64,000 nt of DNA, taken from Candidatus Woykebacteria bacterium (GTDB lineage: Bacteria; Patescibacteriota; Microgenomatia; Woykebacterales; RBG-16-39-9b). The position numbers were made by a program, and so were the translations under genes. Below, in pieces: positions 7,786-18,567 of the stretch. How positions within the stretch are numbered: position 1 is the stretch's first letter; every line of letters begins with the position of its first letter. Below the pieces are notes generated by a model. It was not told where the DNA came from. It worked only from the letters and a program-made list of their open reading frames with translations, and did no database searches. The stretch covers positions 116,688 to 180,687 of the forward strand of contig JBBDPM010000001.1 in NCBI GenBank assembly GCA_040876345.1, in the 5' to 3' direction.

Positions 7786-8283
7786 TTATCTGGTTACACT
7801 GATGGAAGGTGCTCCACCACCAGGGTCTTCTGATAGGGGACCAGAGACAGTAACTCGATTGTTTGCAGATCTTCTAATAGTATATCCGGTATTATAATCC
7901 GTGCAGTCGGTGTATTGAAGTGTAGCATCATTTGGATCTGGATCCACGGGCATCTCGGCTAGATATCTTTGGGTTGCCCCAACTAAATCATCACAAATAT
8001 CAGCTCCAGCGTCGCTAATTACCGCAGAGGCTGTGCCGATGTTAGTGGGAATTCTGCCTTCCTCAGCGTAAAATTGGCCAACTGCATTCAATACCGCTAG
8101 GACGTCGGATCTTCTGGTGGTGTTCCTTGCCAAAATAAATTGCCTTGGCGGATTAACAGCGATCAAAACAATTGCAAGTAAGACGGCTAATATTCCGATG
8201 ACAACAAGAAGCTCGATTAGAGTGAAACCTCGCTCGCGGTTCTTTGAAGATTTATTTACTTTCTTGTGGAAGGGCAGATACAT
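7786..8283 (-). CDS. Type IV major pilin (prepilin with a class III signal peptide)
   Basis: Leader followed by G|FTLIELLVVIGILAVLLAI with Glu at +5. C-terminal Cys residues suggest a disulfide loop. It is the last gene of the pilus operon. Confidence 0.75.
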   Translation of the reverse strand: MYLPFHKKVNKSSKNRERGFTLIELLVVIGILAVLLAIVLIAVNPPRQFILARNTTRRSDVLAVLNAVGQFYAEEGRIPTNIGTASAVISDAGADICDDLVGATQRYLAEMPVDPDPNDATLQYTDCTDYNTGYTIRRSANNRVTVSGPLSEDPGGGAPSISVTR

Positions 8284-8284
8284 T

Positions 8285-9748
8285 TTACTGTTTACCTATA
8301 ATTACCTGTGCATCGGCCGAGCTGGACTCGGCAAGCGCTGCATCTATAACAACAGTATATCTAGTTGATAAATCCTTTGTCAAGAGAGGTAGATAATCTA
8401 GCTTCGATTTCTTAATTCTTATTTCAGTTTTAGTAAAGTTGTAGTTTGCAGCGTTTCCGGAAGAGATAACGTTGTAACCTTTTAGTTTTAGAAAATCAGC
8501 TGCCTCATTAGCCGACCCTGGAACACCGTTACCGTTGAGCGCTTCAACTTTCAACGATGATTTTTTTAGCACCGGTTTCGGCTCTTCCTCTTTCTTTGCA
8601 GATGAAGTTGCCTCTGGTACTTCTTTCGTGGCTGAGGCGGTAGCTGAAGGTGTTGCTGAAGGAATAGCTGAGGCAGTTGCCGGTTGGACGGATGGGGAAG
8701 CTAGAGTTTGCTTATCCCTTCCTTTTGGGGTCGAAAAAAGGCTGAAGATTTTTGGGGTGAGTAGAGCTAAGGTTATGATAATAACAACCAAAGCGGCCCA
8801 AGGCATCAAGCGGCGCAAGCTGGTTTTCGGTAGTATTGGGGTCTGAATTACTTTAGATTTGGTAGGCTCGTGCTCGTAGACTTCTCTTATGTGAAATCCG
8901 GGTATATACTTATTTAGCCCGGTTGCCAGGATCAGTCTTTTAAAGGCCGAGAAATCTCCAATTTGAGGGTTGACCTTCCCAAAAGCAACGGGGAGAAGGG
9001 AGCCAGTAAAACCTGTCTCCTTAACAATATTTAGTATTTCTTCTTCTCTTTCCCCGAATACAAAAATCTCAAAAGCACTGCCCTCTCTAAGTTTTTTAAT
9101 TTCTGCCTCTACCAGCTCCTTAATCCAGGAAGAGAGCCTCTCCTTATTAAAAACTCCGTCTTTGAAGTGTTTTGTTGTTGAAAAATAAATACCCCCATCA
9201 AATACTACCGAGAACAAAACCGAGGCTCCTTCAAGGGAAATAACAAGGGCGGGCTTGGTAGATTTCTCCAGGAAGGGAAGAAAAACGACTGGTTCTGGAA
9301 TTATTGAATTAATCTTCAATCCCAAATCCGCAAAAAGTTTTTGATAAAAACTAATTAGCTCCTGAGGAGAGGCGACAAGTTGAATGCTTTTGTTTTTTAA
9401 AAGCCGCAAGCTTGTGTAGCTTCCTTTCAGAGGATAAGGTACACTTTCCTGAACTTTTGGATCTTCAATTAAGTCCTTTTCTTTTTCGGCCTCAATAACT
9501 TTAAGGAAACTTCCCTCTTCTGCAAGTAGTATGTTGATATGATGAGATTTTGCCTCAGTCACGCTGCCGAGAAGTTGGCCAAGTTTTAACTTTACCTCAT
9601 CATAATTCTTTATCGCCCCCGACTGTATAGATCCATCATTGATTTCGACACTCCCAGAATTGATTAGATCAAATTTGCTGCCAGATTTCTCCACAATAGA
9701 GGCTTTAATCGATTTTTCATTGAAACTAAGAATTAATTCTTTAGCCAT
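8285..9748 (-). CDS. PilM-like pilus assembly protein fused to a TM segment, an Ala/Ser/Thr/Pro linker and a C-terminal LytR_C-like domain
   Basis: The N-terminus resembles actin-like PilM (LILSFNEKSIKASIVEK..). TM helix at about aa 315-335. The low-complexity linker is followed by LKVEALNGNGVPGSANEAADFLKLKGYNVISSGNA..TVVIDAAL, matching the LytR_C pattern. Confidence 0.55.
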   Translation of the reverse strand: MAKELILSFNEKSIKASIVEKSGSKFDLINSGSVEINDGSIQSGAIKNYDEVKLKLGQLLGSVTEAKSHHINILLAEEGSFLKVIEAEKEKDLIEDPKVQESVPYPLKGSYTSLRLLKNKSIQLVASPQELISFYQKLFADLGLKINSIIPEPVVFLPFLEKSTKPALVISLEGASVLFSVVFDGGIYFSTTKHFKDGVFNKERLSSWIKELVEAEIKKLREGSAFEIFVFGEREEEILNIVKETGFTGSLLPVAFGKVNPQIGDFSAFKRLILATGLNKYIPGFHIREVYEHEPTKSKVIQTPILPKTSLRRLMPWAALVVIIITLALLTPKIFSLFSTPKGRDKQTLASPSVQPATASAIPSATPSATASATKEVPEATSSAKKEEEPKPVLKKSSLKVEALNGNGVPGSANEAADFLKLKGYNVISSGNAANYNFTKTEIRIKKSKLDYLPLLTKDLSTRYTVVIDAALAESSSADAQVIIGKQ

Positions 9749-9751
9749 TTT

Positions 9752-10126
9752 TTAAGGAGTTTCCTTCCATGAGGTAGTAGTTAGAATATTATTAGAGATT
9801 GTCACGGAAACTTCAACCCTTCTCTTTAAATTGTTTTTTGTGGCGACGCTTGCAATCAACCTGGGATTAGGAGATAAGGGTACAGCGACTTGTACGGAGG
9901 CACCGTCTGGCGTAACAAAGGTTTCGCCGGTATAACTTGGGTCACGGAGAAGTTTTATTAGTGCTTGTTCGACGCCAGACTCAGCTGCATAATGAATAAT
10001 TTCCGTTTGGGTGGCTCGCCCGACGTTTTGAGCAAAACTAGTCGACACTAAAGCAATGCTTGTAGCCAAAGTGGTCATGGCAATTACAATTAATATTGTG
10101 ACAAGGGCTTGTCCTTTTTGATTCAT
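9752..10126 (-). CDS. PilX-like minor pilin (PilX_N-type N-terminus)
   Basis: QKGQALVTILIVIAMTTLA .. AAESGVEQAL fits the PilX N-terminal domain pattern. Its start overlaps the upstream gene's stop (ATGA). Confidence 0.5.
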   Translation of the reverse strand: MNQKGQALVTILIVIAMTTLATSIALVSTSFAQNVGRATQTEIIHYAAESGVEQALIKLLRDPSYTGETFVTPDGASVQVAVPLSPNPRLIASVATKNNLKRRVEVSVTISNNILTTTSWKETP

Positions 10127-10638
10127 GGTCTTTCTCTTAAGCTTATAACAGTACTAAAATTCTTGGATTGGAGGCTAGTCTTCGTCGGCTCGGTTGAAGA
10201 TAAAGTGAAGGTTAAAATGACAGTTGGGAATCCTCCTTGGTTACCAATATTTGTGAATTGCAGATTGTTTGCCTGTATAAAATCGCCGGTTATGGGTACG
10301 CTTGGCCCTGAAGTCTGCAAGTTTATAGTTGAGCCGGACAAAGTGTAGCGGTAGTCGCCCCCGTTTATCCGAAGCCAGAGTATTGAACTTGTATTCCCTG
10401 GGGCAGCGGGGTCACGCACTTCTTGGGCTCTTCTGATGTCATAAGTGAGCCTTTTTAATAAGTAACTACCTTCCGTTTCAAGTCGATTTCGAGCGGTTGA
10501 CTCAAGGTTGGACTCAGATATCCTGAATAAAAGGTCAAGGCCGATAACTAGAATTATAGATAATAAAGTAAAATAGATAAGTATTTCTATTAAAGTAAAT
10601 CCTTTATCGTTTCTCAAACCTTTCTTAAAAGTTTTCAT
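10123..10638 (-). CDS. Pseudopilin / minor pilin with a prepilin-type N-terminus
   Basis: KG|FTLIEILIYFTLLSIIL cleavage/methylation motif. 171 aa. Confidence 0.65.
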   Translation of the reverse strand: MKTFKKGLRNDKGFTLIEILIYFTLLSIILVIGLDLLFRISESNLESTARNRLETEGSYLLKRLTYDIRRAQEVRDPAAPGNTSSILWLRINGGDYRYTLSGSTINLQTSGPSVPITGDFIQANNLQFTNIGNQGGFPTVILTFTLSSTEPTKTSLQSKNFSTVISLRERP

Positions 10639-13214
10639 GGTGAATAATTTACAATAACGTCTTGTAATACAGGGGTGATAATGCCATTCCCAGAAAATTC
10701 AACTTTATACCGAAAGTGGCGTTTACTGACAAGCGCAAGTGGTATTGCTCCAGGACTGTCAAAGTAAGTGGCTGATGTGCCGTCTGGTCCAACAAAACTA
10801 CTACTTAACCACGGGCCGTCCGAATTCAGAGAAGCTATCTGGAATTTAATATTTGTTGTTAGTGGTGGCGCATTCTCCGACCAAGTAACTCGGTTGAAAC
10901 CGACGTTGCTTCCAGCATCAAATGTTCTTGATTCAAAAGTACCAAGCCCCGCAAAATCTGGCCCAATGCCAGGCCCAACAATCTGCAGTTCCCTGGAGTT
11001 GTGAACTGTAGCAAGAAAAGCAACGTTCGCTTCAAAAAATATTCCGTTCGCGTCTCCATCTAGATCTCGTGACCCAAGTTCGGCTATTGCCGAGGGTGTT
11101 TGGACATTAAGAAGCAAAAACTCTTTGTTACTAACCGTCGTTGCTAAGAAAGCTATGTTTCCCGCTATCCAAACACCATTGACGTTACTGCCCACGTTAT
11201 AAGTTGAAGGTGGTGAGTTACTTACCAAACTGATACTTGCTGGATTTGTGACGTTAAGGATATTAAATTCGGGGCCAGAGCCGTTATTTTGGGTTGCAAG
11301 ATAGGCTGTATTGCTGTTCACAAAAACTTCGGAACCATCTGAGTTTGAAGCAGCGTTGTAAGAGCCAATCTCGGTTGGCAGAGTTTTATTGGTAATGTCC
11401 ACCACCATGAGCTCTTTATCATCACGGGCAGTAGCTAAATAGGCTCGATTTCCAACAACGGTTACTCCATAAACTGCATTTGCGTTGACCGGTCCATTAC
11501 CTACCTCAAAACTTCCGATAACGTTTGGGTTGGGTGTGTGAGGACAGGTCAGACCAAAGCGGCTCGCCGCTAAATTTACATCGGTGATACTTACAATTTT
11601 GTCACCATTTATGTCTGAAGGCACATCACCTGTCATACCCACGTTAGACACTATTGTGCCGATATCAACGTTATCAACTCGGTTATCTCCGGTTACATCA
11701 AAACAAGTGTTAACACTTGCTATATAAAGTTCTCGGGCGGTCCCGCTGGAAGATTGTTTTGTTATATAAGCAAATTTGAGTCTGCCAGAGCCTTGTACTG
11801 TGATGTCCAATGCGTCTACAGCGTCTCCAAGATCAAGTGTAGCAACTTTGGCAGGGGCTGCCTTATTACTTATGTTAATTACGGTTAGCTCCTCAGTAGC
11901 ATGGCTCGTGGCCAGATAAGCAAATTGCCCGCTGGTTGCACTGTCTTCCACTGAGATTCCGTTGACGTCGGCCGTTAAATTAAGTGTTCCAGTAACCACG
12001 GGACTTGCCGGGTTAGAGACGTTGATAATCGCGAAATCTGGGGCGCTGCCAGCATCTTGTATACCCACGTAAGCATAATTATTCAACACGAATGTATCGA
12101 CCCCATTTCCATTGCCGGAGTTATCATAGTTTGCTAAAGATTGCGGATTTCCCCAGTTAATGTTTCTTTTCAGCTGTACTTCTCCACCAGAAACGCTTGT
12201 AGTTTCCGTGTTGGATAAGGTGCCGGAGTTAAAATCTGCTTGAGTAGTTTGCACCCAGGTAGTGTTTCCCAAAGTCCTTGTTAAATAGAATGTGTTTTGG
12301 ATGTTTCCACCGAAAAATGAGGTCCAAGAAACATTAGAGGTGATTTTTTTTGTGGAAGTGTCTATTGTGCCAGAGGGGCAGGTGACAAGGTTGTTACTAG
12401 AATCACGACAAGCATCTCCAATTTCTACTTGTCTAGTGAAATTTCCGACTGTTTCTGATCCAGTTTCAAGACGCCAAGTTTTAGCAGGATCAAGGCCGGA
12501 AAGAGTCATATTTTGAATATAGGTTGGAGAAAAACAGAGGAGGGGGTTTAAACTACAGTTTGTTTTTATCACCCAAATCTCAACTATAGTAGTTGGCGTA
12601 TAAGGCGGAAATGTGGCAGTCAGTTCTCCGGAAGACCCTGGTGTCCCAATATAATCGGCAATTGCGTTTGATGGGGTGCAGCCGCCTTGGGGGCAAATAG
12701 AAACCCGCTCCTCTATACCGGGGTTCAGACCAGTAAGTTTTAAACTTGAAATTGTGTTAAAAGCGAAACACGACAGGGGTTCTAAGGGCCCACCACAGTT
12801 TGAAGTTTTTAATACCCATACTTCAACAATGGCTTGAGGTGTTAGTGGTGTGTATTGAGGAAAATTAACATCAAGCTGACCGGGACCGAAGGAATAATCT
12901 GTATCCTGGGTAAAAACACCATTTTGACACCCAGAAGTTTGGCAAATTGATACTGAGTATTCTCTGCCAGACGGCTCAATATGATAAGTTCCGTTTGTTA
13001 GCTTAGACCAGCCCGACTCTCTTACAGAACGCATTGCTTCTCCTTGCAAAAGAGAGGAGGTTTCGGCGGCAAGAACGTTTGCAGCTCTCTCTCGAGACTC
13101 TCTTGTGCTAACCAAAAGAAGGCTGACGCTGGTCAAAACAATAGCGACAATACCAAAGCCGATGACGAGTTCAATTAAAGCTTGCCCATTTTTAGTTAAT
13201 CGTGACTCTTCCAT
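10635..13214 (-). CDS. Giant pilin-like protein (859 aa), a putative pilus-tip adhesin. Pilin-like N-terminus, tandem Cys-containing repeats, a dockerin-like Ca-binding module, and LVIVD-type beta-propeller repeats
   Basis: N-terminus NG|QALIELVIGFGIVAIVL has Glu at +5. Two roughly 85-aa tandem repeats each carry 4 Cys. DVTGDNRVDNVDIGTIVSNVG and DINGDKIVSITDVNLAASRFG resemble dockerin type I repeats. Repeated (A)Y(L/V)AT..(E)L.V(I/V)(N/D)(I/V)(S/T)N(P/K)..P units match LVIVD repeats. Confidence 0.65.
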   Translation of the reverse strand: MEESRLTKNGQALIELVIGFGIVAIVLTSVSLLLVSTRESRERAANVLAAETSSLLQGEAMRSVRESGWSKLTNGTYHIEPSGREYSVSICQTSGCQNGVFTQDTDYSFGPGQLDVNFPQYTPLTPQAIVEVWVLKTSNCGGPLEPLSCFAFNTISSLKLTGLNPGIEERVSICPQGGCTPSNAIADYIGTPGSSGELTATFPPYTPTTIVEIWVIKTNCSLNPLLCFSPTYIQNMTLSGLDPAKTWRLETGSETVGNFTRQVEIGDACRDSSNNLVTCPSGTIDTSTKKITSNVSWTSFFGGNIQNTFYLTRTLGNTTWVQTTQADFNSGTLSNTETTSVSGGEVQLKRNINWGNPQSLANYDNSGNGNGVDTFVLNNYAYVGIQDAGSAPDFAIINVSNPASPVVTGTLNLTADVNGISVEDSATSGQFAYLATSHATEELTVINISNKAAPAKVATLDLGDAVDALDITVQGSGRLKFAYITKQSSSGTARELYIASVNTCFDVTGDNRVDNVDIGTIVSNVGMTGDVPSDINGDKIVSITDVNLAASRFGLTCPHTPNPNVIGSFEVGNGPVNANAVYGVTVVGNRAYLATARDDKELMVVDITNKTLPTEIGSYNAASNSDGSEVFVNSNTAYLATQNNGSGPEFNILNVTNPASISLVSNSPPSTYNVGSNVNGVWIAGNIAFLATTVSNKEFLLLNVQTPSAIAELGSRDLDGDANGIFFEANVAFLATVHNSRELQIVGPGIGPDFAGLGTFESRTFDAGSNVGFNRVTWSENAPPLTTNIKFQIASLNSDGPWLSSSFVGPDGTSATYFDSPGAIPLALVSKRHFRYKVEFSGNGIITPVLQDVIVNYSP
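12449..12947 (-). repeat. In-frame tandem duplication (2 x ~85 aa) inside the giant pilin-like gene
   Basis: Protein repeats CQTSGCQNG..FPQYTPLTPQAIVEVWVLKTSNCGGPLEPLSCF and CPQGGCTPS..FPPYTPTTIVEIWVIKTNCSLNPLLCF. Coordinates are approximate. Confidence 0.5.
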
Positions 13215-13680
13215 ATTGATTTATGGTAAACGCTCTAGTTTGACCAGTATTAGATTCAGTTAACGCGAAGTTATTTTGGGCACCGCTGTAGTTTTGTACC
13301 TCCCCTGAAAGTTTAGAAAAGATAATGTTACTAGAGGGTAAATTTATTGGGCTTATGGATATGCTTGGCTCAAACGTAGTTTCTAGGTTGGCTGTATCAC
13401 TTAGGTTGTAAGAAGCTCCTTTGAAAATAACGATTTTGTTTTGTTCAAAATGCACACCGTGGCTTTCGGCTGAGGAAGATCCCCCCGTGCTTCCCACCAT
13501 AGCTAGGTTTTGAGCTTCTTTAAGTGCAAAATAGATTTGGTCTTCGGCCGCTCTTATGTCGGCTTGGGATTTTGGTCTAGTGATACTCACTAATATGAAT
13601 CCAAAAGCTAAAGAAAATAGGGCGATAACTAATATAATTTCTATTAGGGTAAAGCCAGAAGACTTTAGAGATTTTCTCAT
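13192..13680 (-). CDS. Pseudopilin / minor pilin with a prepilin-type N-terminus
   Basis: SG|FTLIEIILVIALFSLAFGF motif. 162 aa. Overlaps both neighbours. Confidence 0.65.
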   Translation of the reverse strand: MRKSLKSSGFTLIEIILVIALFSLAFGFILVSITRPKSQADIRAAEDQIYFALKEAQNLAMVGSTGGSSSAESHGVHFEQNKIVIFKGASYNLSDTANLETTFEPSISISPINLPSSNIIFSKLSGEVQNYSGAQNNFALTESNTGQTRAFTINQYGRVTIN

Positions 13681-14780
13681 CCTGGGCTTATTTGGCTAAT
13701 TAATTGGTAAATTGGAGAAATTACAGCTAGGATCACAGAGCCAACAATAATACCAATTACAATGATTAAAGCTGGCTCAATTACCGTGGACAGGGTTTTT
13801 ACTTCGCGGGAGAGTTTGTCGTGGTAGTGGAGGGCTACACCAGCCAGGACTTCGTCGAGTTGTCCAGTTTTCTCTCCGGTGGAGATTATTCGAGTCATTA
13901 GAGTAGGAAAAGTTTTAAATTCTCTCATCCCCTCGGCCAACCCCTTACCTTCAGTCAATTTATGAGTTACTTCTTCAAGTTCACGCTTGGTTCTCTTATT
14001 CAAAACCACAGTTGATGAAGCTTCGACCGCCTTAATTATGGGAATGCCAGCCGAAAGTAGTAAGGATAAGGTGGACGAAAGGCGTGATAAGTCAAGATAT
14101 CTCAAGACACTTCCGAAAACTGGGATGTGAAAAGAAGCGGTGAGTAGTTTTTTCCGTACTTCTTTATTTGATAGTAAAATTATTGTGCCAATAGCAGCGA
14201 TTAAGATGAATATACCGACAAAAATATAGTATTTGTTTACAAAAAGAGCAGTGGAAAGGAGGATTCTTGTTGGTAATGGTTTGGGAATAGTAAGCTTTTC
14301 AAATATTTCGGCAACTCTGGGAACAACAAATCCAAAAAGAACCGCCATTACGAAAAAAAGCACGCCCAAGACAATCGCTGGGTAAAAAGCGGCTTGTTTA
14401 ATATCGTTTTTTAACTCTTCCTCTTGTTTCATGTTGTCGGAGAGCTGTTTGAGTACTTTATCCAAGCCCCCGCTTTCCTCTCCGGCTTTGACAGTATTTA
14501 CAAATATATCGTCAAAAATATTGGGGAATTGAGAGAAGCTTTCAGCAAGGTTGTGCCCTTTTTGGATGGAGTCTCTAACCGAGCGGACCACACCTTTAGT
14601 CTTTAAGTTGTCGGAGTCGTTTTCAATGCTTTCAAAAGCATCTAAAATTGGGATTCCGGCCCCAAGCATGATCCCTAAAGACTCGACTAAGGTGAGTCTT
14701 TCAATAAAAGGAAGTTTTACCTTAAGGGGGATTATTTTCGGCTCTTTTTTAACTGTGAAATTAAACATTGGCAGTTTCAA
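13677..14780 (-). CDS. pilC: Type IV pilus inner-membrane platform protein PilC (GspF family)
   Basis: Two GspF-type repeats (..GEESGGLDKVL.. and ..GEKTGQLDEVL..) and three TM segments. 367 aa. Confidence 0.85.
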   Translation of the reverse strand: MKLPMFNFTVKKEPKIIPLKVKLPFIERLTLVESLGIMLGAGIPILDAFESIENDSDNLKTKGVVRSVRDSIQKGHNLAESFSQFPNIFDDIFVNTVKAGEESGGLDKVLKQLSDNMKQEEELKNDIKQAAFYPAIVLGVLFFVMAVLFGFVVPRVAEIFEKLTIPKPLPTRILLSTALFVNKYYIFVGIFILIAAIGTIILLSNKEVRKKLLTASFHIPVFGSVLRYLDLSRLSSTLSLLLSAGIPIIKAVEASSTVVLNKRTKRELEEVTHKLTEGKGLAEGMREFKTFPTLMTRIISTGEKTGQLDEVLAGVALHYHDKLSREVKTLSTVIEPALIIVIGIIVGSVILAVISPIYQLISQISPG

Positions 14781-15049
14781 CCAAAATTATACCACTTGTG
14801 GGTGTTAAAGTAGATTCCAAAGTTTGACCCCAAACCCATAGCTATGTTATGATCAGGTACGAAATTTGTTGAAACAGCTTCGGATGGGTATTTTGTCGAC
14901 TAAGATTTAATCGCCAGTGAGCCCAATCTGAGGCCGCCGTAGGAGGGATTTCGATCAGTTTCGGGACGGTGTTACCCATGCAGCCCCAACCACATTTCCT
15001 AGTGAAGCCGTTAGTGGATCTAGGTGGGGCACCGAAAAGGAGGAAAGTG

Positions 15050-15649
15050 ATGTGGCGTACAGTAGAAGGACGAAGAGTTCTAAGGCCAACCGATAGAGAT
15101 CTTAAGCCTCGGGCAAGCAAACTCCAAGATGTCGCGAGGGTTATCAAAGGGCTAGGGTCTCCAGAATCGGTGGATATCTACGTTTCGAAGTGGCGGTTTG
15201 GTGTTACGATGCTGGGTGTTAATAGCAACATCAAAGGCGCAGTTCCCATAGGCGAGGTGGTAGAAGCTCTCAACATAGAGTTTGGGCGTGGTGAGTACCA
15301 CCAAGTAGGTGTTCAGCATGTAGGTGAATGGATTCTCTCACTTGCGACCACCTGCCCTGTCTTTTGGGCCTACACCGAGGATCGCTCTTGCTACATCGGG
15401 CGGCACGATCCGGTTGTAGCGGGGGGCACAGTGCTGTACAAGCACAGCGATGAATGCCCTTGTAGGCATCATGGAGTCAGCTGCAGCGTCCGGCCTTGCG
15501 GGGATTGCAAGGGAAGTTGTCCAATGATTCGTAAATGCACGAACTGTGGGAGTCGTTGGGATCTGAACAGGAAGCCTCCACGGCCGCTGACGCTCATTTG
15601 GACTCCGGTCCACGTTTCTAACCCCTGGTCTAGGGAGCAAGAAACGTAA
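15050..15649 (+). CDS. Hypothetical Cys-rich protein in a GC-rich (55-60% GC) island, antisense to the pilus operon
   Basis: Consensus SD (AAGGAGG, 15037-15043) lies 6 nt upstream of the ATG. The 200-codon ORF stays open across sequence at about 58% GC (chance p ~1e-3). The C-terminus has Cys pairs (CPCRHHG..CGDCKGSCP..CTNCG). The track ORF 14969-15649 includes an unlikely 5' extension. Confidence 0.45.
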   Translation: MWRTVEGRRVLRPTDRDLKPRASKLQDVARVIKGLGSPESVDIYVSKWRFGVTMLGVNSNIKGAVPIGEVVEALNIEFGRGEYHQVGVQHVGEWILSLATTCPVFWAYTEDRSCYIGRHDPVVAGGTVLYKHSDECPCRHHGVSCSVRPCGDCKGSCPMIRKCTNCGSRWDLNRKPPRPLTLIWTPVHVSNPWSREQET

Positions 15650-15716
15650 CGATTGTCGATCGTACTGGGTGGCGGTGGCAGGCTTGCCCTTCACCGCTGC
15701 CCACAGTTCTTATGTG

Positions 15717-17405
15717 TTATTCGCTTACTGCGCGGATGACTTCGCCAAGGCTTGTTTGGCCTTCGGCCACTTTTTCTAAGCCATCTTCAATCATTAGTTT
15801 AAAGCCTTCAGATTTTGCCTGATCCATTAGTTTTTGAATTGACGACTTGTCAAAAATTAGCTTGCGTAGGTCCTCACTCACCCGCAGTACTTCGTAAATC
15901 CCAACTCTTCCTCGGAAACCGGTATTTGAGCATTCTGGGCAGCCTTTTCCACGCCTTGCTTCTACTTTACCGGCCAAAAAACCGGCTACTACTTCTTCGC
16001 CGTATTCTTTAGCAAGGTCTTTAAGAACGCTTTCTTTAATCTCCTCTTTTACAAGGCAAGATGGGCAATTTCTGGCTACAAGTCGCTGCGAAATCACTAA
16101 ATTAAGGGTGGATCCAATTAGATAAGGCTGGGCTCCAAGGTCGTAAAGCCTTGGAATTGTACTGACTGCATCGTTCGTATGTAAAGAGCTCAGTACTAAA
16201 TGACCAGTTAGAGCAGCGTGAATTGCAATTTCGGAAGTTTCTTCATCGCGGATTTCTCCGACTAAAATTACGTTTGGATCATGCCTCAGGATTGCCCGAA
16301 GCCCAGAGGCAAAAGTAAGGCCAGCTTTAGGATTTATTTGGGTTTGGTTTACTCGGGGGAGTCCATATTCAATTGGATCTTCAATAGTGCAGATATTGAC
16401 ACTAGAGGTGTTGAGAATTATTAGCAGGTTGTATAGGGTTGTCGTTTTACCACTTCCCGTGGGGCCAGTTGAAAGTACCATACCATGGGATTTTTGGATG
16501 CCTTCTTTAACTAGTTTTAAGTTATTACCAGAGAGTCCAAGATCCTCCAAAGTCTTTGGTCTTGCTGCCGATGAAAGAAGCCGCATTACGGCGTCCTCAC
16601 CGTGATAGGTAGATAATATCGAGACCCTTACTGATATTTCGTCCGAGCGGTGTTTGAAGCGAAATCTACCGTCTTGGGGGAGCCGGTGCTCATCGGTGCG
16701 CAGATCTGAAATTATTTTTATCCTGGTGATTAATCCAGCCTGAATTGTGGTTGGAAGCTCTAAAACATCTCTAAGCCTGCCGTCAACCCTGAAGCGGATT
16801 ATTACTCTATCACCTACATTTTCAATGTGAATATCACTGGCTCTCTCCGATGCCGCAAAGTCTAATATTGTATCCAGGATTTTTACAACTGGAAGATCCT
16901 CACCACCGACTGCTCCTTTCGCTTTTGCTTGGGAGACGTTTTCCTCAATAATTTCCTTAAAATCCTTCCTTATATCCTTATGATATTGATCGAGGACGTC
17001 ATCTATTATTGAAGGTAGAGTGAAGTATATTTCTACTGACCCACCAACCTTTTTCTTGATAAAATCTAGGGCTTCAGGGTCTTGAGGATTTTCAAGCGCA
17101 ATTTTTACACTGTTACCATCTTTGGCAAAAGTCACCGCCCTTTTTTCAGCGGCTATCTCCTCGGGGATAAGATCTAAGATTGATTTTTCGATTTTATGGT
17201 CTTTTAGATCGGCGTAAGGGTAACCAACGTATTCGGCGATCGCTTGCCCAAGAAACTTCTCTAATATTACACCACGTTCTATTAATACATCAGTTAAGGG
17301 TTTATTTAGGTCAGAAGCAGCTTTTTCTGCCTCTTGTAGTTCGGCAGGATCAACAAATCCAGATTTTAAGATAAGCTTTTTAAGCTCATTACCTTCAATG
17401 GTCAT
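15717..17405 (-). CDS. pilB: Type IV pilus assembly ATPase PilB (GspE family)
   Basis: Walker A (STGPTGSGKTTTLY), Asp and His boxes, and a C-terminal tetracysteine motif (CPSC..CPEC). 562 aa. Confidence 0.9.
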   Translation of the reverse strand: MTIEGNELKKLILKSGFVDPAELQEAEKAASDLNKPLTDVLIERGVILEKFLGQAIAEYVGYPYADLKDHKIEKSILDLIPEEIAAEKRAVTFAKDGNSVKIALENPQDPEALDFIKKKVGGSVEIYFTLPSIIDDVLDQYHKDIRKDFKEIIEENVSQAKAKGAVGGEDLPVVKILDTILDFAASERASDIHIENVGDRVIIRFRVDGRLRDVLELPTTIQAGLITRIKIISDLRTDEHRLPQDGRFRFKHRSDEISVRVSILSTYHGEDAVMRLLSSAARPKTLEDLGLSGNNLKLVKEGIQKSHGMVLSTGPTGSGKTTTLYNLLIILNTSSVNICTIEDPIEYGLPRVNQTQINPKAGLTFASGLRAILRHDPNVILVGEIRDEETSEIAIHAALTGHLVLSSLHTNDAVSTIPRLYDLGAQPYLIGSTLNLVISQRLVARNCPSCLVKEEIKESVLKDLAKEYGEEVVAGFLAGKVEARRGKGCPECSNTGFRGRVGIYEVLRVSEDLRKLIFDKSSIQKLMDQAKSEGFKLMIEDGLEKVAEGQTSLGEVIRAVSE

Positions 17406-17770
17406 TTGGAATACTCGCGGATTTTATCAACAATTTCTTGGGGGGTGACATCTGTCTTCATGAATATTTCTTTCGCGCCTAAGCTTTTGCATTTTTTTAC
17501 ATCTTCTTCGGAAACATTTAGGTTTGTTAAAACAATCACCGGTATGTCTTTTGTTTCCGAGTCTCCTTTGATTTTTTCCAAAACTTCTGTACCACTCATT
17601 TTCGGTAACATTATATCGAGTACTATTACATCTGGCTTGGTGTCCTTTACTTTTTGCAGACCTTCTTCACCGTCCAGAGCAGTTTCAACCTGAAATCCGT
17701 CATGAGTGAATTTCATGTTATACATCTTCACCATTAAAGAGTCGTCCTCAACAAGCAGTACCTTACTCAT
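17402..17770 (-). CDS. Single-domain response regulator (CheY-like receiver)
   Basis: Receiver domain with the acidic pocket (LLVEDD) and phospho-acceptor Asp (VIVLDIMLP). No output domain. Its stop overlaps the pilB start. Confidence 0.8.
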   Translation of the reverse strand: MSKVLLVEDDSLMVKMYNMKFTHDGFQVETALDGEEGLQKVKDTKPDVIVLDIMLPKMSGTEVLEKIKGDSETKDIPVIVLTNLNVSEEDVKKCKSLGAKEIFMKTDVTPQEIVDKIREYSK

Positions 17771-18567
17771 CAGTTTTTACCCTCCTCTTGTGTAAGATTT
17801 TCAGCTACTTCTCTTGCTTTTTTACTGCCAGTTGTGGGTAAAGAAAAACAGAATTTTGAGCCCTCTTGAGGCTTACTTTCTCCAAGCCAAATTTTTCCAC
17901 CAAGTTTCTCAATAATGACTTTAGAAATATAAAGGCCTAGGCCACTGCCGCCCGAAACTCTAGTTTCTTTAGTTGAGGCTTGGGAAAATTTTTCGAAAAG
18001 ATGCGATTGCTTTTCCACTGGTACTCCCGCTCCGGTGTCGGCAACACAAGTTATTACGTAGTCTTCCTTCTGTGAAAAGTTAACCGTAATAGAGCCTTTT
18101 TTCGTAAATTTCATAGCGTTACCGACAAGATTAATTAGTACTTGAACTAGCTTGTCGGTGTCAGCTTGGACCTTTGGTAAATTTTCTGAAGGCGCTTCAA
18201 GAATTAGAGAAAGCTTTTTTTCGGAAGCGGAACGAATCAAAGATTGTAATAGAAGCCTTGCTTGTTCAACCACATCAATGTCGTCTCGTAAAATAAATTG
18301 CATTCGGCCAGCCTCAAGCCTGCTTATATCCAGCATGCCGTTGACAAGCCTGATTTCCCGCTCAACCGCAAGGAGCATTTCAGTAAGAACGTCCCTGACT
18401 TGAGGTGAGACAGGTCCTGCATCTCCGGCAAGAAGCATGTTTAAGTAACCTTTAATAGTGGACATTGGGGTACGTAGCTCATGAGAAACAATTGAAATAA
18501 ACTCATCCTTAACGGATTCCAACTTTTCTGTCTGGACATTTTGTTTTTGGGAGGTAGTCTCTTGCAT
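17770..18567 (-). CDS. Cytoplasmic histidine kinase (HisKA + HATPase_c, no sensor or TM)
   Basis: H-box SHELRTPMSTIKGY, N-box NLVGNAMKFT, G-boxes DTGAGV and GGSGLGL. Its stop overlaps the response regulator start. Confidence 0.8.
   Translation of the reverse strand: MQETTSQKQNVQTEKLESVKDEFISIVSHELRTPMSTIKGYLNMLLAGDAGPVSPQVRDVLTEMLLAVEREIRLVNGMLDISRLEAGRMQFILRDDIDVVEQARLLLQSLIRSASEKKLSLILEAPSENLPKVQADTDKLVQVLINLVGNAMKFTKKGSITVNFSQKEDYVITCVADTGAGVPVEKQSHLFEKFSQASTKETRVSGGSGLGLYISKVIIEKLGGKIWLGESKPQEGSKFCFSLPTTGSKKAREVAENLTQEEGKN

Follow-up and report, generated by a model that had tools for sequence, protein, structure and literature searches.

The window analysed here, a stretch of 64,000 nucleotides from contig JBBDPM010000001.1 of a very small, uncultured Candidatus Woykebacteria bacterium (Patescibacteria), contains a pilus operon in which one gene encodes a PilM-like domain and a LytR_C domain in a single polypeptide, separated by a transmembrane (TM) helix and a low-complexity linker. 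This PilM-LytR_C fusion is real, conserved and so far undescribed; no publication pairing PilM with LytR_C was found in the literature searched. We consider the protein likely to be the inner-membrane alignment subunit of a type IV pilus machine of the Candidate Phyla Radiation (CPR), in which a single chain provides the equivalent of PilM and PilN in the layout of GspL.

Architecture of the fusion protein

The gene (8285..9748, minus strand, as are all other features of the operon described below) is one open reading frame (ORF) running from ATG to TAA with zero internal stops. From the N-terminus, its 487-aa product reads as a PilM-like domain, a PilN-type juxtamembrane motif with a TM helix, an Ala/Ser/Thr/Pro-rich linker and a LytR_C domain. 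It is a 100% match to the NCBI entry 'MAG: LytR C-terminal domain-containing protein [Candidatus Woykebacteria bacterium]' (P0001; MAG, metagenome-assembled genome), and the same protein is present on three contigs. An AlphaFold2 model, for which 15 homologues were used as input, has a mean predicted local distance difference test score (pLDDT) of 77. In this model, a confident N-terminal alpha/beta domain with an actin-like fold (aa 1-288, pLDDT about 90) is followed by a segment modelled with low confidence (aa 289-311), a long helix (aa 311-335) and a confident C-terminal domain with the topology beta-alpha-beta-beta-alpha-beta-beta.

The modeled helix and a Kyte-Doolittle peak of 2.37 at aa 320-338 place a single TM helix at about aa 317-338 (8735..8800), a position common to all homologues compared. 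Directly behind it lies a disordered linker of 54 residues (aa 339-392; 8573..8734) with pLDDT below 50, in which Ala, Ser, Thr and Pro make up 63% of the residues vs 29% across the whole fusion protein. Both the TM segment and the Ala/Ser/Thr/Pro-rich linker had been called in an earlier reading of the sequence (the original prediction), and both are borne out.

Because direct tests with hidden Markov models (HMMs) remained below threshold (see below), the kinship of the N-terminal part with PilM was approached via profile-profile and structure comparison. An exhaustive search of 1.84 billion cluster representatives (E<=1e-3) with a profile of the N-domain alignment (A2) found 210 proteins. 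Every one of the PilM-sized proteins recovered (67/67, best E 7e-52) and 34 of the 36 longer TM-bearing proteins tested match PilM_2, whereas T2SSL, the GspL model, was also matched by just 4 of the 67. When the N-domain alignment was compared by hhalign with an alignment of these 67 bona fide PilM_2 proteins (A5), the two matched with 99.7% probability (E 2.6e-26, 194 columns). TIGR01175 and the PilM chain of 3jc8 gave weak, concordant direct matches over aa 11-145, the whole-protein profile produced only marginal matches to PDB sequences (2m5y, E 0.017; 3jc8 PilM, E 0.02), and divergent relatives matched PilM_2 only at E 3e-4 to 7e-3, under its 27-bit gathering score. The fold of the model is actin-like, with PilM as the nearest solved structure. 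Taken on these comparisons of sequence profiles, the N-terminal 288 residues (8885..9748) can solidly be regarded as a predicted cytoplasmic domain of the actin-like (ASKHA) superfamily and a diverged, degenerate but true homologue of PilM; the resemblance to PilM had originally been noted from the ORF translation.

Merging the fusion family into the canonical PilM_2 alignment allowed the columns of the nucleotide-binding motifs to be read. At phosphate-1, the canonical Asp (81%) is replaced by Ser8 in 11/11 of the fusion family; at phosphate-2, Asp-x-Gly (87% and 93%) has become Ser171-x-Glu173; and the Gly-Gly-Gly of the adenosine motif is represented by Gly232-Glu-x. In addition, an internal segment that is conserved in canonical PilM_2 proteins (columns ~300-386) consists entirely of gaps in the fusion family. 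This block of about 80 alignment columns corresponds to roughly 40 residues per canonical protein and, by comparison with GspL, is probably subdomain 2B. Since all three motifs are replaced and the internal segment is deleted, we infer that nucleotide binding has been lost and that the domain serves as a scaffold. Abendroth and colleagues are said to have described, in 2004, a GspL cytoplasmic domain of this nucleotide-free kind.

The PilM-like domain ends in the motif I-P-G-F-H-(I/V)-(K/R) (aa 282-288; 8885..8905), which precedes a variable juxtamembrane segment and is not seen in canonical PilM. In this region no variation is seen at K280, P283, F285 and H286, and K288 is nearly invariant, in the 15 sequences of the close family (alignment A1).

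The C-terminal assignment is direct. Residues 399-486 (8291..8554) match LytR_C (PF13399) with 33.8 bits against a gathering cutoff of 22.2 (E 6.8e-8, profile positions 2-84 of 86), and LytR_C also exceeds the Pfam cutoff in 10/10 divergent relatives tested. The string LNGNGVPG...GYNV...GNA...VVID, on which the original prediction had based its call of this domain, is found in the translation, and the Pfam search that it proposed supports the call. With the family profile, a weak match to the nuclear magnetic resonance structure of Rv0431 (2m5y, E 0.017-0.023) was obtained among PDB sequences, and a Pfam scan of the protein did not detect an LCP catalytic domain (PF03816). The PilM domain carries no signal peptide and the protein has a single TM helix, from which the LytR_C domain is predicted to lie outside the membrane; the charges flanking the helix (3 Lys + Arg on each side) are uninformative for topology. 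To call this domain 'cell-wall-associated', as was done originally, is an assumption. The function of LytR_C has been described as 'yet unknown' (PMC11481543), and published data favour a role in protein-protein interaction (PMC11481543, PMC11832169). In VirR, it is involved in self-interaction and in VirR-Lcp binding via the LytR_C tails of LCP ligases, at nascent wall sites (PMC11832169).

Relatives, their tails and a PilN-type motif

The same continuous architecture is found in 14 full-length homologues of the close family (50-58% identity), in line with the homologue search suggested in the original prediction. In the profile search, proteins that combine a PilM-like domain, a TM helix and LytR_C form about 18 clusters (at 50% identity) among the best 150 of the 210 proteins, one of which is from Candidatus Saccharimonadales, and siblings named 'pilus assembly protein PilM' occur in Candidatus Beckwithbacteria and in a Patescibacteria group bacterium. 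Among GTDB species representatives, only three loci of the close family were identified. A word-indexed search that started from a more diverse alignment (A8) recovered nothing beyond the close family and one LCP protein, and is uninformative for distribution.

Between the PilM-like domain and the helix, the otherwise variable segment carries x-L-P-K/R, with LP in 12/15 family members. In the Woykebacteria protein it reads P-I-L-P-K (aa 304-308; 8825..8839), a putative degenerate counterpart of the (I/L)NLLP found at the N-terminus of PilN. (I/L)NLLP is the conserved N-terminal motif of PilN, and Karuppiah and Derrick reportedly recognized it in 2011 as the PilM-binding peptide. PilM is bound by PilN's eight N-terminal residues (PMC6325625). 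Clearer NLLP-type motifs occur at the same place in relatives that bear LytR_C (P0034, 'FNLLPP'; P0109, 'LNLLPLP'; P0063, 'LTLLPLP') and in others (P0066, 'TINLLPV'; P0136, 'TINLLPK'; P0100, P0159 and P0160).

The relative P0066 connects this scaffold to PilN itself. This protein of 469 aa has a partial PilM_2 match, the NLLP motif and a TM helix at residues 318-336, after which a PilN domain (25.0 bits, cutoff 22.8) occupies the position held by LytR_C in the fusion; the two proteins share 23% identity over 226 aa (BLASTP, E 6e-10). Its operon has the order histidine kinase, two response regulators, PilB, PilC, PilMN and, further on, a pilin. Behind the fusion it contains an additional gene for a 245-aa protein, a possible PilO, and the Woykebacteria operon is without such a gene. 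The Woykebacteria fusion itself is unmatched by the PilN HMM (PF05137) at E<=1 and has no above-threshold match to the PilO HMM. Because of the pre-helix NLLP motifs and the PilN-bearing sibling P0066, the fusion appears best described as a PilM-PilN fusion in which a linker and LytR_C have taken the place of the PilN ectodomain.

Other exchanges are evident when the tails of the 36 longer TM-bearing relatives are compared: SH3_3 follows the helix in seven, SH3_4 in four, PilN in three and SLH in one, and the rest are unannotated. SH3_3 and SLH are classic cell-wall-binding domains. Judging from these annotations, the tail after the helix is modular across the same radiation. One protein was checked individually (P0083) and has a TM helix at 384-402 and SH3_3 at 612-660.

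In many CPR PilM_2 proteins of 500-720 aa (P0083, P0035, P0100, P0159 and others), diverse tails follow a TM helix located near residue 385-400. This suggests that fusions of PilM, a TM helix and an ectodomain are a broad, little-described family.

The pilus operon and competing readings

The operon opens with genes for a histidine kinase (17770-18567) and a single-domain response regulator (17402-17770), followed by a PilB/GspE assembly ATPase (15717..17405; T2SSE, E 1.4e-121) with an N-terminal MshEN (GSPII) domain (E 1.1e-13), which is the expected partner of a PilM-like domain. A PilC/GspF platform protein (13677..14780; T2SSF, E 8.4e-55, with GspF/PilC NCBIfam matches) is followed by a GspH-like minor pilin or pseudopilin of 162 aa (13192..13680; N_methyl), a giant pilin-like protein of 859 aa with LVIVD beta-propeller repeats (10635..13214; LVIVD 65.7 bits, N_methyl weak at 12.4 bits), a second minor pilin or pseudopilin of 171 aa (10123..10638; N_methyl) and a small pilin-like protein of 124 aa with a weak PilX_N/GspK-like N-terminus (9752..10126). 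The fusion comes next, and behind it are a major pilin candidate of 165 aa with an N_methyl prepilin motif (7786..8283) and a diacylglycerol kinase gene. The junctions are tight: the stop of the 124-aa gene is 3 nt ahead of the ATG of the fusion, its 3' end holds a Shine-Dalgarno-like GGAAGGA, and a single nucleotide separates the TAA of the fusion from the ATG of the major pilin.

This order is the same around homologues of 47-57% identity (loci L001/L002, L006 and L007), and at the locus of the distant LytR_C-bearing relative P0021 (L010) the succession of minor pilins, fusion and pilin is kept. No match to PilN, PilO or GspM was found in the operon genes or in the single-TM ORFs of the window, GspM, GspC and a secretin are missing among the operon genes, and the absence of PilN and PilO from the operon is conserved in three relatives. 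Together with the NLLP motifs and the PilN domain of P0066, this gives comparative support to the original proposal that the fusion stands in for PilN and PilO.

Two further aspects of these operons deserve mention. The two-component genes share a base at 17770 (kinase and regulator) and the regulator overlaps pilB by 4 nt (17402-17405), and a histidine kinase and a response regulator also stand first in the operons of all relatives, that of P0066 included, which suggests dedicated two-component control of this pilus. The 859-aa LVIVD protein has orthologues of 611-697 aa in all related operons (L001, L006 and L007), one of them with a weak Dockerin_1 match, and is a candidate for an adhesin at the pilus tip that would bind to a host or a surface.

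Several observations weigh against the fusion being the alignment subunit of a pilus machine. Direct searches did not place the N-terminal domain: PilM_2 (PF11104), the very model with which the original prediction had proposed to check it, and T2SSL (PF05134) both leave the fusion unmatched even at E<=1, and TIGR01175 (pilM) gives 14.7 bits where 133 are required. The P-I-L-P-K segment is short, has a pLDDT below 50 and is not predicted to dock intramolecularly. The search for PilN and PilO covered the operon and the 64-kb window, and these proteins could be encoded elsewhere in the genome. A PilT is not present in the window, where T2SSE was matched once (PilB) in 80 ORFs, and the filament may be non-retractile, or a Com-like or type II secretion system (T2SS)-like pseudopilus. 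Finally, P0072, one of the relatives with LytR_C, is encoded next to an IS110 transposase and not within a pilus cluster.

The pseudopilus possibility leads to the alternative that the fusion is the GspL of a Com-like DNA-uptake system or a T2SS-like pseudopilus system rather than the PilM of a surface pilus. Such an identity would fit the GspL-like architecture and the loss of the nucleotide motifs and the internal segment, and GspL cytoplasmic domains have the top target-normalised TM-scores in Foldseek (1yf5, TMt 0.68). In the operon, the major pilin has GspG as its top NCBIfam match (E 2.8e-8), the minor pilins match the GspH and ComG families, the ATPase scores almost equally as PilB (TIGR02538, 498 bits) and as GspE (489 bits), and PilT is missing from the window; Meheust et al. 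indeed term the CPR protein 'the GspL domain PilM' (PMC6744442). We nevertheless regard this alternative as unlikely, as the profile search recovers PilM_2 proteins, with T2SSL matches confined to the 4 of 67 mentioned above and none in the fusion, and the 859-aa LVIVD protein suggests an exposed adhesive filament. To a large extent the choice between GspL and PilM is a matter of naming inside one superfamily.

That the fusion would be an envelope or division factor, i.e., a LytR_C protein like VirR or Cei with an FtsA-like anchor that merely has pilus genes as neighbours, seems improbable. The NCBI name mentions LytR_C only, an NCBIfam model for the envelope integrity protein Cei is weakly matched (E 0.0024), the gene for P0072 is away from pilus genes, and LytR_C proteins work in wall remodelling (PMC11832169, PMC11481543). 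However, the slot between minor and major pilins is fixed, translationally coupled and kept from 57% to about 25% identity; the profiles reach PilM_2, and matches to FtsA are secondary and fall on proteins that already match PilM_2. A link of the scaffold to pilus machines is provided by the PilN-type motif and by P0066 with its PilN domain, and the LCP catalytic domain is lacking in the fusion. An artefact, in which a frameshift, a sequencing or assembly error or a missed stop has joined two genes, is hardly conceivable and was rejected, given the continuous frame, the identical protein on three contigs, the 14 independent full-length homologues and at least 16 further clusters with the same architecture in different samples and lineages, and the finding that in all homologues a TM helix and a linker separate the two domains.

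For a PilM-PilN-like alignment subunit in the inner membrane, the following mode of action can be envisaged. The cytoplasmic domain, as a nucleotide-free scaffold, would recruit PilB via its MshEN/GSPII domain to PilC, for which PilM with PilF, and EpsL and XpsL with their ATPases, are precedents (PMC6325625). LytR_C would be put outside the membrane by the TM helix and the linker of 54 residues, with a reach that we estimate at up to roughly 15-20 nm if the linker is fully extended. There, LytR_C might homo-oligomerise, as in mycobacterial VirR, and so form the outer ring normally made by the ectodomains of PilN and PilO, and/or it might dock the machine to the wall or to wall-building proteins and take over the anchoring role of these ectodomains.

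Some features of this and the related loci stand apart from the fusion. The pilC and pilB genes are separated by a GC-rich island of about 900 bp (14781-15716; 50-56% GC vs a window mean of 42%) that is missing from all three orthologous operons, where the pilB-pilC gap is 14-17 nt. Its plus strand, antisense to the operon, has a folding z of -3.9 (0/20 shuffles as good), vs -0.6 for the minus strand, and no Rfam match was obtained at gathering or at E<=1. An ORF on the plus strand of the island (14969-15649) would encode a Cys-rich protein of 226 aa, for which neither a homologue other than itself nor a Pfam match was found, and blastn did not reveal similar DNA in phages, plasmids, the window or the fetched related loci. 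The island may represent a structured RNA confined to the lineage, or else an insertion that is orphan or mobile. In a related locus (L001/L002, 14042-16354), the pilus operon is followed, a few kb downstream, by genes for an RVT_1 reverse transcriptase and a GIY-YIG protein; this pair, which may be a mobile intron or retroelement, is missing at the matching place of the Woykebacteria window. Lastly, the chromosome-level MAG OZ246414.1 (L002/L004), titled 'uncultured Gammaproteobacteria bacterium', holds a fully syntenic pilus operon of the CPR type, whose fusion protein is 47% identical to that of the Woykebacteria window, and its Gammaproteobacteria label is probably wrong.

Wider reading and likeness to known systems

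Type IV pili are well known in the CPR, where Nanosynbacter TM7x has pilM, pilN and pilO as separate genes (PMC12206443, PMC6744442), and are central to the episymbiotic lifestyle of these bacteria (PMC9894109, PMC12206443). The fusion indicates that some lineages would have PilM, PilN and possibly PilO condensed into a single chain with LytR_C outside, and siblings would do so with SH3_3 or SLH. As the public name covers the LytR_C half only, inventories based on PilM, PilN and PilO HMMs will score such genomes as lacking an alignment complex. The compressed fusion offers a minimal pilus machine to study, and it places LytR_C, a domain without known function, within a defined molecular machine.

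More tentatively, and with rather more doubt than belief, LytR_C could be seen as a general extracytoplasmic module for oligomerisation or wall docking that has replaced the PilN and PilO ectodomains in several CPR lineages, such that one polypeptide makes up the whole alignment ring and ties it to the wall. If true, the proteins in which PilM and a TM helix are followed by LytR_C, SH3_3 or SLH would represent a modular, wall-binding way to anchor pilus machines where there is no outer membrane, and would provide a tractable genetic and structural setting for learning the ligands of LytR_C, those of VirR and Cei included.

Compared to PilM of type IVa pili (PF11104; 2ych, 5eou, 3jc8), the fusion domain is about 60 residues shorter, with the conserved internal segment deleted, and its replaced phosphate-1, phosphate-2 and adenosine motifs make ATP binding unlikely. 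PilM is soluble and tethered by the peptide of a separate PilN, whereas the fusion is covalently joined to its TM helix and ectodomain. Like PilM, it is encoded with pilB, pilC and pilins, also at L001/L002, L006, L007 and L010.

The layout of an actin-like domain predicted to be nucleotide-free, one TM helix and a small ectodomain is shared with GspL/EpsL/XcpY (PF05134; 1yf5, 4pht, 2w7v, 6ghu). In contrast to GspL, the fusion is not matched by T2SSL, partners such as GspM, GspC or a secretin are missing from its operon, and an outer membrane is not expected. The complex of PilM and PilN is regarded as an orthologue of GspL, and the PilN and PilO ectodomains resemble the GspL ectodomain and GspM (PMC4471445).

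The LytR_C side of the protein recalls VirR (Rv0431; 2m5y) and Cei (Rv2700) of Mycobacterium tuberculosis and the tails of the LCP protein CglA, in which the same Pfam domain is located outside the membrane after a TM segment and a low-complexity linker. Without an LCP catalytic domain, the fusion resembles the 'LytR_C solo' proteins. VirR, Cei and the LCP ligases, however, lack an actin-like cytoplasmic domain and any link to pilus genes, and their role is in the homeostasis of wall glycopolymers or peptidoglycan. FtsA, which is also actin-like, binds ATP, polymerises, uses an amphipathic helix and is found in division clusters, whereas the fusion has a TM helix with an ectodomain, and the sequence profiles link it to PilM instead.

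The closest likeness in overall plan is to PilM-PilN fusions, known as PilMN from C. difficile (PMC7057214) and found here in the CPR (P0066, and P0136 from Candidatus Beckwithbacteria). These have the same length, TM position, shortened PilM domain and NLLP-type motif, and the same type of operon, in which a histidine kinase and a response regulator are followed by PilB, PilC, the fusion and a pilin. What differs is the part behind the helix: PilN (PF05137) in these proteins, and a long Ala/Ser/Thr/Pro-rich linker with LytR_C in the Woykebacteria fusion.

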